The notes beneath the pieces are model-generated. The model was not told the DNA's origin, made no database searches, and worked only from the letters and a program-made list of their open reading frames with translations. From NCBI RefSeq assembly GCF_024223415.1, contig NZ_CP100500.1: 64,000 bases of DNA. One strand, written 5' to 3'. This document shows positions 21,594 to 64,000 of this stretch, one piece after another. Each line of letters starts with the position of its first letter. The stretch's first letter is position 1. A program made the translations under genes and the position numbers. This stretch comes from Escherichia coli. Its GTDB lineage: Bacteria; Pseudomonadota; Gammaproteobacteria; Enterobacterales; Enterobacteriaceae.

Positions 21594-24500
21594 ATGGGTA
21601 AAGGCAGCAGTAAGGGGCATACCCCGCGCGAAGCGAAGGACAACCTGAAGTCCACGCAGTTGCTGAGTGTGATCGATGTCATCAGCGAAGGGCCGATACA
21701 AGGACCGGTGGATGGATTAAAAAGCGTGCTGCTGAACGGTACGCCGGTGCTGGACAGTGAGGGGAATACCAATATATCCGGCGTCACGGTGGTATTCCGG
21801 GCCGGTGAGCAGGAGCAGACGCCGCCGGAGGGATTTGAATCCTCCGGCTCCGAGACGGTGCTGGGTACGGAAGTGAAGTACGACACGCCGATTACCCGGA
21901 CCATCACGTCGGCAAACATCGACCGTCTGCGCCTGACCTTCGGTGTGCAGGCACTGGTGGAAACCACCTCAAAGGGGGACCGGAATCCGTCGGAAGTCCG
22001 CCTGCTGGTTCAGATACAGCGTAACGGTCGCTGGTTAACGGAAAAAGACATCACCATTAAGGGCAAAACCACTTCACAGTATCTGGCTTCGGTGGTGGTG
22101 GATAACCTGCCGCCGCGCCCGTTCAGTATCCGGATGCGCAGGATGACACCGGACAGCACCACAGACCAGCTGCAGAACAAAACGCTCTGGTCGTCATACA
22201 CCGAAATCATCGATGTGAAACAGTGCTACCCGAACACGGCACTGGTCGGTGTGCAGGTGGATTCGGAGGAGTTCGGCAGCCAGCAGGTGAGCCGTAATTA
22301 TCATTTTCGCGGGCGCATTCTGCAGGTGCCGTCGAACTATAACCCGCAGACGCGGCAATACAGCGGTATCTGGGACGGAACGTTTAAACCGGCATACAGC
22401 GATAACCCGGCCTGGTGTCTGTGGGATATGCTGACCCACCCGCGCTACGGCATGGGGAAACGTGTTGGCGCAGCGGATGTGGACAAATGGGCGCTGTATG
22501 TCATCGGCCAGTACTGCGACCAGTCGGTGCCGGACGGCTCTGGTGGCACGGAGCCGCGCATCACCTGTAATGCCTGGCTGACCAGGCAGCGTAAGGCGTG
22601 GGATGTGCTCAGTGATTTCTGCTCGGCGATGCGCTGTATGCCGGTATGGAACGGGCAGACGCTGACGTTCGTGCAGGACCGACCGTCGGATAAGGTGTGG
22701 ACCTATAACCGCAGTAATGTGGTGATGCCGGATGATGGCGCGCCGTTCCGCTACAGCTTCAGCGCCCTGAAGGACCGCCATAATGCCGTTGAGGTGAACT
22801 GGAGTGACCCGGATAACGGCCAGGAGACGGCGACAGAGCTTGTGGAGGACACGCAGGCCATTGCCCGTTACGGTCGTAACGTCACGAAGATGGATGCCTT
22901 TGGCTGTACCAGCCGGGGGCAGGCACACCGCGCCGGGCTGTGGCTGATTAAAACGGAGCTGCTGGAAACGCAGACCGTGGACTTCAGCGTGGGTGCCGAA
23001 GGGCTTCGCCATGTGCCGGGCGATGTCATTGAAATCTGTGATGATGACTATGCCGGTATCAGCACCGGTGGGCGCGTGCTGGCGGTGAACAGCCAGACCC
23101 GGACGCTGACGCTCGATCGTGAAATCACGCTGCCATCCTCCGGTACCACGCTGATAAGCCTGGTTGACGGAAGTGGCAATCCGGTCAGCGTGGAGGTTCA
23201 GTCCGTCACTGACGGCGTGAAGGTGAAAGTGAGCAGTGTTCCTGACGGCGTTGCTGAATACAGCGTGTGGGGGCTGAAGCTGCCGACGCTGCGCCAGCGC
23301 CTGTTCCGCTGCGTGAGTATCCGTGAGAACGACGACGGCACGTATGCCATCACTGCCGTGCAGCATGTACCGGAAAAAGAGGCCATCGTGGATAACGGGG
23401 CGCACTTTGACGGCGACCAGAGCGGAACGGTGAATGGTGTCACGCCGCCAGCGGTGCAGCACCTGACCGCAGAAGTCACCGCAGACAGCGGGGAATATCA
23501 GGTGCTGGCGCGCTGGGACACGCCGAAGGTGGTGAAGGGCGTGAGCTTCCTGCTTCGCCTGACCGTGGCAGCGGATGACGGCAGTGAGCGGCTGGTCAGC
23601 ACGGCCCGGACGACGGAAACCACATACCGCTTCAGGCAACTGGCGCTGGGGCGTTACACGCTGACGGTCCGGGCGGTAAATGCCCGGGGGCAGCAGGGAG
23701 ACCCGGCGTCGGTATCGTTCCGGATTGCCGCACCGGCAGCGCCGTCGCGGATTGAGCTGACGCCGGGCTATTTTCAGATAACCGCCACGCCGCATCTTGC
23801 GGTTTACGATCCGACGGTACAGTTTGAGTTCTGGTTTTCGGAAAAGCGGATTACCGATATCAGGCAGGTTGAAACCACAGCCCGTTATCTTGGTACCGGA
23901 AGGCAGTGGCTTGTCTCCGGCCAGAATATTAAACCTGGCCATGATTATTACTTTTATATCCGCAGTGTTAACACTGTCGGTAAATCGGCATTCGTGGAGG
24001 CAGTCGGTCGGGCGAGTAATGATCCTGCCGGTTACCTTAATTTTTTCAGGGGGGCGATAAATAAAACGCATCTGGGACGGGAGATCAATGAACGCATTGA
24101 TGCCTCTGCACGGCGCACTGAAGTTGAGCAACTGGAGAATGCGATTAACCGCGAAATGACGCAGCTGGAGAAAGATGTGAGGCAGCGTGCGGAGCGTGAT
24201 ATCGCAGAGGTGACGAAAAAAATCACGGCGTCTGAAAACAGCATAACGGAACTGGTGGCGAAAAAGAGCGGTGAACAGTCAATGGCCATTGCGGAAGTTG
24301 ACAGAAAAGTTGACAGGATGGGAAGCGAAATCCGGCAGACAGTAAGCAGGAGCACGGAGGAGAACAGCCGACAGATAGCGCAGATCAGACAGTATGTTGA
24401 TGATAAGGGAAGTCAGATCACACAGAGCACGGATAAAAAACTGGGATCCTGGAATGCCAGCATTGAGCAGATACAGAAAGTTCAGGAGGACACGCGCCGG

Positions 24501-60512: not shown

Positions 60513-60557
60513 CGACTCGGGGTGCCCTTCTGCGTGAAGGCTGAGAAATACCCGTAT
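60513..60557 (+). promoter_or_regulatory. 5' part of the thiM TPP riboswitch aptamer (P1 5' strand, P2, P3, CUGAGA pyrimidine-sensor arm), truncated at 60557
   Basis: GACTCGGGGTGCCCTTCTGCGTGAAGGCTGAGAAATACCCGTAT equals the first ~44 nt of the recalled crystallised E. coli thiM aptamer. The expected continuation CACCTGATCTGGATAATGCCAGCG is absent. Confidence 0.8.
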
Positions 60558-60745
60558 TTTCTCATTTAGTGTTTTTTGTGGTTCGGGGTTGTTCGTGGTT
60601 GTTTGTGTATGTGTTTGATATATATTGAATTATTGTGTTTTCTTGTTTGTTGTTGTTCGTCGTTGTTCGTAGAGCTTCAACAAAATGTGTGGTCAGTTGT
60701 GTGGTCAGTTTTTTGAGGCTGGAGGACTGAAAAGAGGATCTGATA

Positions 60746-61969
60746 GTGGGAAAAGCACTAAACAAACTGAGCGATTCGACGTTAAAAAAATTGGCGTCTG
60801 TCCAAGCAGAAAAAGAGCGTTTTTACTCCGACGGGGGCGGGCTGGAGATTAAACACTCAAAGGGCGGCAAATTAACCTGGTATTTCCGGTACCGAACGGG
60901 AGGCCGTGAGGTTGCCGCAGAGCGGTTAAAGCTGGGGGCTTACCCTGAATTGTCGCTGAAAGCTGCAAGGGAAAAACGCGCACAGTGCCGGGCATGGCTG
61001 GCTGAGGGTAAAAACCCCCGTTATGAGTTGTGCGCCACAGTACAGGAAGCGCTAAAACCCGTTACGGTGAAGGAGGCGATTAACTACTGGCTGGATGAAT
61101 ATGCGAAGGATAACCGCAAAGACTACATAAAGCTGGTGCAACGTATGGATAAGCACATCATTTGCCATATAGGGGCAATTCCCCTTGATAAGTGTGATAC
61201 AAGGCAGTGGATCGCATGTTTTGACCGTGTACGAAAAAAAGCACCAGTAGCAGCAGGGCACGTCATGCAAACCTGCAAACAGGCGCTAAAGTTCTGCCGC
61301 AGGAGACGCTACGCGTTCAGTAATGCCCTGGACGATTTGATCGTCAGCGATGTGGGTAAGAGAGCAGAAATTCGCGAGAGGGTGCACAGCAACAGCGAAT
61401 TAAAGGAAATTTTACGCGCTATTGATGGTGATGTGTTCGCGCCTTACTACAGCGCGTTAATGCGCTTGCTGATTGTGTTCGGGTGCAGAACGGCAGAGGT
61501 CAGACTTTCAGAGATCAAAGAATGGGATCTGAAAGAAATGTTGTGGACAGTGCCAAAAGAGCATAGCAAAACGAAGGTAACGATATTCAGGCCAATCCCC
61601 GATGGCATTTTGCCGTTCATTCAGAAGCTGGTGGAGCAGAACCGGCATACAGGGTTATTACTCGGAGAACTGAAAAAAGATACCACGGTAGCGCAATATG
61701 GGCGAAATGCGCATAAGCGGCTTAACCAGGAACACTGGACGCTGCATGACTTTCGCCACACGTTTACAACGATGCTGAACGATTTAGGTGTCGATCCGCA
61801 TATCGTGGAGCACATCACAGCGCATCAGATGCCCGGTCAGCAAAAAACCTATAACCATTCACGCTATTTACAGGCGAAGCGAGACGCTCTGAATCTGTGG
61901 GTTGAGCGCCTCGATGTGCTGGCTGGAAATCATGAAAATATTGTCATATTAAGGGCTGAAAATGAATAA
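60746..61969 (+). CDS. int: Tyrosine integrase, P4/CP4-57 type (DUF4102 N-terminal arm-binding domain)
   Basis: GTG start after AGAGGA. The N-terminal ..FYSDGGGLEIKHSKGGKLTWYFRYR..GAYPELSLKAAREKR is typical of P4-like integrases. The C-terminal HDFRHT...Y catalytic region is present. Confidence 0.9.
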   Translation: MGKALNKLSDSTLKKLASVQAEKERFYSDGGGLEIKHSKGGKLTWYFRYRTGGREVAAERLKLGAYPELSLKAAREKRAQCRAWLAEGKNPRYELCATVQEALKPVTVKEAINYWLDEYAKDNRKDYIKLVQRMDKHIICHIGAIPLDKCDTRQWIACFDRVRKKAPVAAGHVMQTCKQALKFCRRRRYAFSNALDDLIVSDVGKRAEIRERVHSNSELKEILRAIDGDVFAPYYSALMRLLIVFGCRTAEVRLSEIKEWDLKEMLWTVPKEHSKTKVTIFRPIPDGILPFIQKLVEQNRHTGLLLGELKKDTTVAQYGRNAHKRLNQEHWTLHDFRHTFTTMLNDLGVDPHIVEHITAHQMPGQQKTYNHSRYLQAKRDALNLWVERLDVLAGNHENIVILRAENE

Positions 61970-62747
61970 TCTGGGCCGTGTATATCATACGCTGCCAATG
62001 GCAGCTAAAAAAATGGGATGTACTGTAGAGGATATTCTACATTTTGGTGCAACTAACCGACTTGAAATATGTGCGTATATTGATGATATTGAACAGAGAA
62101 AAGATTATTGCACTTTTAATGTGTTTTTTGATAATGAAGATAGCGAGAATAGTTTTTCTAAAACTATAAATAAATATAATTCCATATTTACTGACATGTA
62201 TGAAATATCATTGTTTAATTATAATGATGAGTTTTGTGTTGATGATGAGCGTATGGTTATTGAAGGTTTGTATGCTAATCATATGAAAGGCTTTTTTGCA
62301 ATACCATCTGAATTTCTTGTCGAAGTTGAATTGTCAAGTGCCTGTGAAATCATAAATCTATCGCCTCGTTATTTATATACACCGAAAGGTTATGGTGATT
62401 ATATTCGGTTGGATAGTATAGAAGGTCTTTCTATTCCAGAAAACAGGCTCGTGATATTCGATAGTGAGATATCGGGTTTTAATTATCAAAAGAAACCTAA
62501 ATATGCCGGAGGTGAAAGAGAATCACCTAAAACCAGAGCTAAAAAAGCCGAGATAATACCTGCTCTCATAAAACTGATCCCTGAGATGCAAGATGTGGAT
62601 TTGGAGGATACACCCGTATCCAAAATTGCAGAAATGATAGAGGTTATTGCTGCACAAAGAGGGGTTGAGTTACCTAGCACTCACAGGCAGACATGGCAGA
62701 AATATTTAGGGCGTGATGCTGGTGACGTTCCAAAACGTCAAAAGTGA
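61962..62747 (+). CDS. Hypothetical AT-rich cargo protein (261 aa), possible N-terminal Xis/MerR-like HTH
   Basis: The start overlaps the int stop (ATGAATAA). The N-terminus YHTLPMAAKKMGCTVEDILHFGATNRLE is HTH-like, the middle is acidic and aromatic, and the C-terminus is basic. Confidence 0.6.
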   Translation: MNNLGRVYHTLPMAAKKMGCTVEDILHFGATNRLEICAYIDDIEQRKDYCTFNVFFDNEDSENSFSKTINKYNSIFTDMYEISLFNYNDEFCVDDERMVIEGLYANHMKGFFAIPSEFLVEVELSSACEIINLSPRYLYTPKGYGDYIRLDSIEGLSIPENRLVIFDSEISGFNYQKKPKYAGGERESPKTRAKKAEIIPALIKLIPEMQDVDLEDTPVSKIAEMIEVIAAQRGVELPSTHRQTWQKYLGRDAGDVPKRQK

Positions 62748-62774
62748 TATCACGTACAGATAGTGTGATATCAC
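62744..62774. promoter_or_regulatory. Two copies of the 10-bp palindrome GTGATATCAC, 21 bp centre to centre (operator-like)
   Basis: Exact copies at 62744-62753 and 62765-62774, directly upstream of the alpA leader. Confidence 0.5.
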
Positions 62775-62803
62775 ACAAACGGCATTTTACCACCGCCTAG
62801 AAT

Positions 62804-62837
62804 CGTCCTCGTTCGGCAACGTTCGAGGACGTTTTTT
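62804..62837 (+). terminator. Terminator-like hairpin abutting the alpA start codon and containing its Shine-Dalgarno sequence
   Basis: CGTCCTCG (62804-62811) pairs with CGAGGACG (62824-62831), then TTTTTT, then ATG at 62838. The GAGGA lies in the 3' arm. Confidence 0.55.
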
Positions 62838-63485: not shown

Positions 63486-63683
63486 TTATTCTGATTCTTT
63501 GGCCTTGCGGCGCTGTTCATATTTTAATTTGCGTCCACAGGCATCTAAGACCCATGCGGAAAAATTAGCACTAGGATTAGTTAATTTTTCTTGTTCAACG
63601 CTGGCATCAATCCCATCTATAAGCTCATGTGGGAATCGAATATTTTTCTTTGCTGATTTGTTGTTTGTGTTACCACTAGACAT
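63486..63683 (-). CDS. YlcI/YnfO-family small protein (DUF3950-like), candidate switch regulator
   Basis: 65 aa. NIRFPHELIDGI...NFSAWVLDACGRKL is paralogous to 5547..5741. A GAGGTG Shine-Dalgarno sequence is present. Confidence 0.7.
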   Translation of the reverse strand: MSSGNTNNKSAKKNIRFPHELIDGIDASVEQEKLTNPSANFSAWVLDACGRKLKYEQRRKAKESE

Positions 63684-63710: not shown

Positions 63711-63790
63711 TGGGCGCACACAATACAGCAAAAAAAGTGAGAAGTTAAGTATTGACATGTGCGCACACATGATTCTAATCTGTGCGCACA
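63711..63790. promoter_or_regulatory. Divergent promoter/operator region: TGTGCGCACA palindromes around a TTGACA-N16/17-TCTAAT(C) rightward promoter
   Basis: Exact 10-bp palindromes at 63758-63767 and 63781-63790, and a 9/10 copy at 63711-63720. TTGACA is at 63752-63757. A leftward candidate is TTAACT-N17-TATTGT. Confidence 0.5.
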
Positions 63791-63882
63791 GTTTGGGTTG
63801 CATTGCTCAAATTAAGCAACGCCCCGCAGTGCTCGCAACACATGCAGGGCGTCTAACCAAACCGTTAATAGGAGTAACGATT

Positions 63883-64000
63883 ATGGCTGGAACACAGCAT
63901 ACCCCACGCCTTGCGCACACACAAACCGCCTTTGTGTGGCGTTTTCTGGCACTGAGTGCCGGAGAATCTCAAATTATCCACGTAACCGCCTGGACGGAAC
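63883..64000 (+). CDS. 5' end of an unidentified gene running off the window
   Basis: ATG at 63883, 8 nt after AGGAG. It reads MAGTQHTPRLAHTQTAFVWRFLALSAGESQIIHVTAWTE.. and is open to the window edge. Confidence 0.5.
   Translation, partial: MAGTQHTPRLAHTQTAFVWRFLALSAGESQIIHVTAWTE

Follow-up and report, generated by a model that had tools for sequence, protein, structure and literature searches.

What does a gene of 261 codons do when it is lodged between the integrase gene and the master activator gene of a phage satellite? This question is raised by a 64,000-nucleotide (nt) stretch of an Escherichia coli genome (contig NZ_CP100500.1; hereafter the window), near the end of which a satellite element begins with the integrase gene int, followed on the same strand by an open reading frame (ORF) at positions 61962 to 62747, which we call X, and then by alpA. 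AlpA is the helper-dependent master activator (PMC6092414) and excision regulator of Gram-negative phage-inducible chromosomal islands (PICIs) (PMC6092414, PMC11773190). We find that X belongs to a previously undescribed protein family whose constant genomic partner is alpA, that it fills an optional slot, and that a near-invariant pair of palindromes accompanies one of its modules. Tentatively, we favor the view that X is encoded by an optional cassette with a regulatory role at alpA, the master switch gene of this PICI-type satellite.

X belongs to a domain-shuffling family that stands ahead of alpA

The ORF described in an earlier, sequence-only reading of this DNA is present, and X is a real gene under purifying selection, because full-length homologues occur in Escherichia, Salmonella, Citrobacter, Klebsiella, Pluralibacter, Yersinia and Serratia and the ratio of nonsynonymous to synonymous change (dN/dS) against four homologues is 0.12 to 0.34. 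Its ATG (61962-61964) lies 3 nt ahead of the int stop codon TAA (61967-61969), so that the two genes overlap by the last 8 nt of int (ATGAATAA), and a Shine-Dalgarno-like AAGGG is found 8 to 12 nt 5′ of the start. The X start had been placed inside the int stop codon; the overlap stands, but the ATG adjoins that codon rather than being literally inside it. The low G+C (GC) content noted earlier is borne out, with 35.6% for X (26% at third codon positions, GC3) and 29.9% for its middle part, compared with 49.2% for int (GC3 55%), 47.6% for alpA and 50.5% for the whole window. The same holds for the acidic, aromatic center and the basic tail. The middle part has an isoelectric point (pI) of 4.5, with 23 Asp and Glu and 22 Phe, Tyr and Trp residues, and the C-terminal part of about 80 residues (pI 8.2, mildly basic) is the sole basic portion of a protein whose overall pI is 5.0.

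X was said to fit no family, and it indeed has no significant match in Pfam, NCBIfam, PHROGs or PADLOC and none in a profile search of PDB sequences. Even at E ≤ 1, no Pfam family is matched, and a BFVD search returns nothing at E ≤ 0.001. The label "orphan" was nevertheless wrong. A word-indexed search for relatives recovered 19 clusters only, whereas a full profile search of 1.84 billion representatives recovered 221 clusters at 50% identity (E ≤ 0.001).

Domain mapping of 166 retrieved sequences separates a constant part of the family from exchangeable ones. The constant part is the N-terminal ~45 residues (N), with the consensus LPERLYYPLxxAAxKLGCxVxDIIHxGA. This segment is joined to the middle (M) and C-terminal (C) modules of X in 55 sequences, to the same middle with another C-terminus in 41, and to the same C-terminal module with another middle in 20, and it is the only module recognized in 40. 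The family is thus built by domain shuffling, with a helix-turn-helix (HTH)-like N-terminus and swappable middle and C-terminal modules. Among 101 diverse members, just two have any Pfam match, a weak one to HTH_17, and the isolated N-terminal modules of relatives match HTH_17 in 3 of 32 cases (best E value 2.4e-4). The N-terminal profile has no similarity to that of AlpA (hhalign probability 0.3%).

In an AlphaFold2 prediction from the family alignment (predicted local distance difference test score, pLDDT, 82), the N-terminus is small and resembles a winged helix, the middle is of mixed α/β type, and a disordered basic linker leads to a helical C-terminus. No structural relative of the middle module is detectable. 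The C-terminal module (…GVELPxTHRQTWQKYLGR), which is preceded by a basic arm (PKTRAKK), also reaches a pLDDT of 82 when modeled alone, and its structural matches are generic helical bundles only. Comparison of this module with the alternative C-terminus (hhalign E value 5e-4, probability 32%) suggests that the two may be distantly related.

Wherever the gene downstream of an X relative can be identified, it is an alpA-type gene (alpA or HTH_17), located immediately downstream in an int-led element. The contexts covered include E. coli (two attachment, att, sites), Citrobacter, Yersinia, Pantoea, Buttiauxella, IMG/VR contigs and distant metagenomic relatives that retain only the N-terminal module. 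At one locus (L234) the downstream ORF, of 59 amino acids (aa), has no family match. In distant relatives there is no overlap with int, and the two genes are separated by 55 to 100 nt or by other genes. At the metagenomic locus L231 (1581-2101), for example, a DUF4160/DUF2442 pair stands between int and an N-only X relative that still adjoins an HTH_17/AlpA-like gene. Because adjacency to alpA is kept where int overlap or adjacency is lost, the constant link of the X family is to alpA and not to int. The translational coupling of int and X that had been proposed therefore applies to the lineage of the window but not to distant relatives. Searches of 50,697 phage records and 72,556 plasmid records revealed no X relative. 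An X with this C-terminal module is found beside this type of alpA in 65 of 5426 complete E. coli genomes (~1%), including a set of O157:H7 strains.

Two surveys of the slot between int and alpA were drawn from IMG/VR and are redundant in places. Among the 80 loci with the closest integrase relatives, X occupies the slot in two and a DUF6387 gene in eight, and 70 slots are empty, leaving a spacer of 320 to 400 nt (up to 420 nt elsewhere); no other content was seen. The 65 loci anchored on AlpA comprise 21 with a member of the X superfamily (11 N plus alternative C, 7 N+M+C, and 3 N plus alternative M plus C), 22 with DUF6387, 20 empty slots, and two with other uncharacterized proteins. The window integrase is 96% identical at the aa level to that of a DUF6387-bearing element at the same rcnR/thiM site, and AlpA is 92 to 93% identical among the window, the DUF6387 element and an empty-slot element. 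Because the same integrase and AlpA are also found with DUF6387 or with nothing between them, X is an optional, swappable cassette in a slot with three recurring states (X family, DUF6387, empty). The earlier suggestion that X was acquired separately agrees with this distribution.

The DUF6387 protein of the element at locus L046 matches PF19924 at 4.7e-31, whereas X and 101 of its relatives have no match to that family. The L046 gene (3073-3927) overlaps the int stop codon by 4 nt, and a DUF6387 gene is also listed beside alpA in ICEKp258.2 (PMC10763509). The two uncharacterized slot proteins (228 aa at L188 and 244 aa at L213) add two further int-alpA proteins, and the L188 protein has a C-terminus (…GTIERWLKESG) similar to the alternative C-terminal module found in the X family.

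A palindrome pair that accompanies the C-terminal module, and a hairpin ahead of alpA

Between X and alpA lie two 10-base-pair (bp) palindromes, or boxes, arranged as GTGATATCAC-N11-GTGATATCAC (62744-62774). Two exact copies of GTGATATCAC occur in the window, where 0.02 would be expected. Relaxed searches for further box-type sites near int found none, and whole related elements carry no other copy of the pair. The pair is exact in all close loci and is kept in a Yersinia element in which X is only 36% identical and the surrounding DNA has diverged. In a set of 18 listed flank sequences representing 17 distinct loci (locus L036 is included in both orientations), the major-allele frequency is 0.98 for box 1 and 0.97 for box 2, compared with 0.47 for the last 30 coding nt, 0.57 for the 11-nt spacer and 0.54 for the downstream DNA. 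The only recurrent box variants are mirrored, with GTGAAATCAC on the left accompanied by GTGATTTCAC on the right, and the spacing is fixed at 21 bp although the spacer sequence drifts.

The distribution of the pair identifies the part of X to which it is tied. In the AlpA-anchored set, 9 of the 10 loci whose X carries the C-terminal module have the pair, compared with none of the 55 that lack this module, 11 of which have a near-identical N-terminal module fused to the alternative C-terminus. Not even a single GTGAWWTCAC site is present in 70 kb of twelve alternative-C loci, and where AlpA is essentially the same but X is missing, the pair is missing too. Therefore, the boxes belong to the C-terminal module of X and are tied neither to AlpA nor to the HTH-like N-terminus of X. 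On the simplest interpretation, the C-terminal module reads the boxes.

Several other assignments for the boxes were considered and rejected. AlpA is excluded as their binder by the box-free loci that encode nearly the same protein, and the N-terminal module by the alternative-C relatives. The boxes share a TATCAC half-site with lambda CI/Cro-type operators, but the separation is N11 here and N5 in lambda. A CRP site is likewise rejected, since the TGTGA/TCACA half-sites are 6 bp apart in CRP sites and 2 bp apart here. Comparison by eye of the putative recognition helix (HRQTWQKY versus DKNTWA[RK]Y) with the central A/T variants of the boxes gave no clean correlation. A scan for the exact pattern in one genome per species returned 37 stretches, among which only the Pantoea locus L036 has int, X and alpA; the others are unrelated repeats, mostly in metagenome-assembled genomes of Myxococcales.

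A hairpin occupies the DNA between the boxes and the alpA start codon. Its 3′ arm sequesters the alpA Shine-Dalgarno sequence GAGGA, TTTTTT follows the core, and the region folds with a z-score of −4.7. At equivalent positions in about 60 loci, a counterpart is found in all loci with an occupied slot, whether by any X type, by DUF6387 or by the two uncharacterized proteins (ΔG −11 to −23 kcal/mol, usually with a U-run), and is absent from loci with an empty slot. The boundary between the X cassette and the DUF6387 variant falls at this hairpin, and the boxes are inside the swapped unit. RNAalifold analysis of 26 diverse loci identifies eight pairs, six of them with compensatory double changes. 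In drifting freely with compensatory changes, the hairpin behaves as a true RNA structure, unlike the sequence-invariant boxes.

Most plausibly, the hairpin terminates or translationally silences read-through from int and the slot gene and would thereby insulate alpA. A precedent is the fold-back inhibition of IS10 transposase translation, where a hairpin confined to read-through transcripts masks the ribosome-binding site of the gene that follows and insulates it from outside transcription. In most alpA loci a U-run follows the stem, and termination is therefore also likely, unlike in the IS10 case. An A/T-rich hexamer (NANAAT; TAGAAT in the window) abuts the stem in most related loci. Were this hexamer a −10 element, alpA transcripts would begin within the hairpin and the boxes would lie near −41 and −62; it could equally extend the stem by pairing with the U-run.

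Table 1. Features of the int-X-alpA region and of the left junction of the satellite (positions in the window)
Feature	Position	Strand	Evidence or remark
att core AGAAATACCCGTAT, satellite left junction within the thiM TPP riboswitch	60544..60557	.	identical 14 nt at the right junction of L001
Tyrosine integrase int, 407 aa	60746..61969	+	Pfam Arm-DNA-bind_3 and Phage_integrase
X, 261 aa, three parts	61962..62747	+	ORF, homologues, AlphaFold2 model, dN/dS, module shuffling
X N-terminal HTH-like module	61962-62096 (residues 1-45)	+	
X middle module, acidic, aromatic, α/β	62097-62501 (residues 46-180)	+	
X basic linker and small helical C-terminal module	62502-62747 (residues 181-261)	+	
Palindrome 1, GTGATATCAC	62744..62753	.	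exact copy; contains the X stop codon TGA
Palindrome 2, GTGATATCAC	62765..62774	.	exact copy; 21 bp (two helical turns) from palindrome 1
Candidate alpA −10, TAGAAT	62798..62803	+	predicted from the sequence
Hairpin and T-run, ending at the alpA ATG	62801..62837	+	core CGTCCTCG 62804-62811 / CGAGGACG 62824-62831
alpA, 74 aa	62838..63062	+	Pfam Phage_AlpA 4.4e-16

What the cassette may do at alpA

If X is the protein of a regulatory cassette, it would be made together with the integrase, to which it is translationally coupled in this lineage, and the cassette would supply its own cis element in the form of two in-phase palindromes spanning from the X stop codon to about 25 nt 5′ of the hairpin. 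An oligomer of X would bind the boxes and set the activity of the alpA control region. The C-terminal module is the proposed binder because it is the only part of X whose presence predicts the boxes. X may act as a repressor or as an activator, as the sequence fits either role. The variable, acidic middle module would be the input domain and may sense a helper-phage product, while the conserved N-terminal module would be the constant effector or contact domain of the family. By ending or silencing read-through from int and X, the hairpin would leave alpA to be expressed only via the regulated route.

Several observations weigh against this proposal. DNA binding by X is putative, as it is deduced from association and conservation, and no DNA-binding fold is recognized in the model of the C-terminal module. 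At pI 5.4, the N-terminal module, which does resemble an HTH, is acidic, and its distribution does not follow that of the boxes. A promoter scan calls no σ70 site between X or the boxes and alpA, TAGAAT included. The boxes are physically continuous with the 3′ end of the DNA encoding the C-terminal module, so part of their association may be linkage, although linkage cannot explain 98% conservation of the boxes amid saturated synonymous change. As RNA, the two boxes can form an 11-bp stem, with which the mirrored A/T changes are equally compatible. Lastly, 70 of the 80 PICI loci of this integrase clade have an empty slot and hence no X, and therefore X is not a general control of alpA.

Some of these observations would fit an alternative in which X does not bind the palindrome pair. 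The pair would instead form a stem-loop in the RNA, stabilizing the int-X message at its 3′ end or serving as a processing site there, or be the target of a host or helper protein, and X would be unconnected to alpA transcription. The 11-bp stem open to the boxes as RNA, the folding z-score of the region, the mirrored AA/TT variants that keep complementarity, the absence of a recognizable DNA-binding fold in the C-terminal module, and the overlap of box 1 with the X stop codon, which makes it inseparable from the C-module DNA, all speak for this explanation. We nevertheless consider it unlikely, given that the sequence of the boxes is near-invariant and not merely their pairing. In addition, each box stays palindromic and the spacer is fixed at 11 nt while its sequence drifts, as befits a protein-DNA operator in helical phase, and the true RNA hairpin about 30 nt downstream behaves differently by drifting with compensatory changes.

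The sequence-only reading had favored another role for X, that of a defense, exclusion or helper-interference factor, on the grounds that the segment next to int is a hotspot for such genes in P4-like satellites. In this scenario, X would be accessory anti-phage cargo whose middle module senses infection, and the palindromes would be self-regulatory or unrelated. The presence/absence polymorphism of X among near-identical elements, its low GC content and the shuffling of its middle and C-terminal modules would suit such cargo, and satellites are known to carry defense genes (PMC9122126). However, PADLOC yields no significant match for X, the DUF6387 protein and eight diverse relatives (two matches are marginal, with E values of 0.015 and 0.037), and no known defense system was seen in the slot among the 65 AlpA-anchored loci. 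The slot is therefore poorly described as a diverse defense hotspot, having three recurring contents plus two other proteins. The X family is also seen solely just 5′ of alpA, and its absence from phages and plasmids is unlike the behavior of mobile defense genes. Moreover, the P4 hotspot that prompted the comparison is the psu-int interval next to cos, not int-alpA, and the relatives of the element studied here are PICIs and not P4-like. As neither PADLOC nor the slot contents lent support to the idea of a defense role, we judge it improbable.

A role for X as a recombination directionality factor or integrase accessory protein, also raised earlier and prompted by its coupling to int in this lineage, is very improbable, as the same integrase (96-99% aa identity) mostly occurs without X, distant relatives of X are uncoupled or separated from int, X is a long acidic protein rather than a small basic one, the sole conserved motif linked to X lies 2.2 kb from the att core, and alpA is already needed for excision in the two PICIs studied by experiment, EcCICFT073 and EcCIMP1 (PMC6092414, PMC11773190).

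The regulatory-cassette proposal can be extended further, at a corresponding cost in confidence. It is conceivable, if doubtful, that in some Gram-negative PICIs the X family members sense helper phages and act as gatekeepers for alpA, as functional counterparts of the Stl protein of the Staphylococcus aureus pathogenicity islands (SaPIs). The C-terminal module would clamp the paired GTGAWWTCAC boxes, each of the shuffled middle modules would recognize a different helper-phage protein, and cassette swaps among X variants, DUF6387 and no gene would re-program which helpers induce the element.

The host satellite and its known counterparts

The window presents rcnB, rcnA, rcnR, int and X in this order, and int lies at the left end of a satellite inserted between rcnR and thiM. 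The visible part of the element consists of int, X, alpA and the first small genes before position 64000. In complete E. coli genomes, three kinds of element occupy the rcnR/thiM site, all with a near-identical integrase. One (L001) is a classical PICI of 11.5 kb that carries int, X, alpA, icd-like, DUF4222, DUF927 primase and perC genes, another (L002) is a capsid-forming PICI (cf-PICI) with capsid, protease, portal and terminase genes, and the third is the PICI at L046, in which the DUF6387 gene replaces X. A further contig (L235) has a 99% identical X in a PICI of 10.4 kb that also carries D5-type primase, SSB and capsid-E-like genes. The features of Gram-negative PICIs, namely co-directional int, alpA and primase genes, a size of 9 to 16 kb and a fixed att site, are found in L001, L002, L058 and L235. 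The psu, sid and delta genes of P4 are absent from the PICI and cf-PICI relatives L001, L002, L046 and L235.

The left junction cuts the thiamine pyrophosphate (TPP) riboswitch of thiM. The window retains the 5′ half of the aptamer at 60513-60557 (…GGGGTGCCCTTCTGCGTGAAGGCTGAGAAATACCCGTAT), and L001 has the 3′ half and thiM after its right junction (22188-22280), with the same 14-nt core AGAAATACCCGTAT. Rfam finds a TPP match at neither junction; therefore, the insertion separates the genes from their riboswitch and native thiMD promoter. A doubled direct repeat (TGTGTGGTCAGT twice, 60686-60709) is located inside a 60-nt block (60651-60710) that recurs near both ends of L001 (10692-10751 and 22063-22122). 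These blocks are probably arm-type sites of the integrase, and the doubled repeats are similar to the "doubled motif" described for PICI attP sites (PMC10111431). A T/G-rich tract of degenerate repeats (GTTGTTCGT-like units, 60555-60680) lies between the junction and the int start.

Beyond alpA, palindromes of the TGTGCGCACA type are found at 63711 (one position mismatched), 63758 and 63781, and an overlapping TGCGCACACA variant is present at 63912. The region that contains them is divergent, flanked by a minus-strand YlcI/YnfO (DUF3950) gene (63486-63683) and a plus-strand gene starting with an ATG at 63883, and the palindromes look like a second operator set of the satellite (63711-63921). 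Far from the satellite, the window carries three adjacent tRNA genes (Met-CAT, Arg-TCT and Thr-TGT; 1777-2009) that are unrelated to X.

The elements that carry X share the int-alpA-primase layout of the Gram-negative PICIs EcCICFT073, EcCIEDL933 and EcCIMP1, and the relatives with the same integrase or X are a classical PICI, a cf-PICI and a PICI bearing a capsid gene. These described islands differ at the slot. In EcCICFT073, alpA appears to be ORF2 with no slot gene (the gene after alpA is named "ORF3" in the paper), and EcCIMP1 has only a small unrelated ORF at this position.

A parallel is offered by the Stl/Rpr master repressors of Gram-positive PICIs (SaPIs). Like X, these are modular satellite proteins that combine a DNA-binding part (putative in X) with divergent sensor parts, are encoded beside int and act just 5′ of the gene that starts the cycle (as proposed for X). 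Stl/Rpr-type operator repeats are situated between the regulator gene and the launch gene, and the palindrome pair between X and alpA has the corresponding position. However, X has no sequence or fold similarity to Stl/CI-type repressors and no family or PDB match, it runs in the same direction as alpA, whereas Stl and str/xis are divergently oriented, and it is optional within its element family. Compared with small winged-helix proteins of the MerR superfamily (Xis of phage Pukovnik, 4j2n; RdfS, 8dgl; BldC, 6amk; HTH_17), X lacks a Pfam match and profile similarity to AlpA, and its acidic N-terminal module is fused to about 215 more residues and does not co-occur with the conserved boxes. 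The defense hotspot of P4-like satellites (PMC9122126) and the X slot are both variable gene slots adjoining a satellite integrase, but the hotspot lies on the other side of int, belongs to a different satellite family and holds many known defense systems, whereas none of the three recurring contents of the int-alpA slot is a known defense.

In the papers searched, we found no experimental work on the X family and no published description of an HTH-like protein of 230 to 330 aa or of a GTGATATCAC pair ahead of alpA, and we regard the palindrome pair as a new finding. The 2018 description of Gram-negative PICIs noted that their global repressor was unclear and that the phage inducer had not been identified (PMC6092414). 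The int-alpA interval emerges from our analysis as a three-state slot with a matching insulator hairpin rather than a generic defense hotspot, which corrects a tempting assumption. The X family is satellite-specific, has swappable modules, stands directly ahead of alpA and carries its own near-invariant, operator-like site. It may therefore offer an entry point to how Gram-negative PICIs silence alpA and how helper phages induce it.

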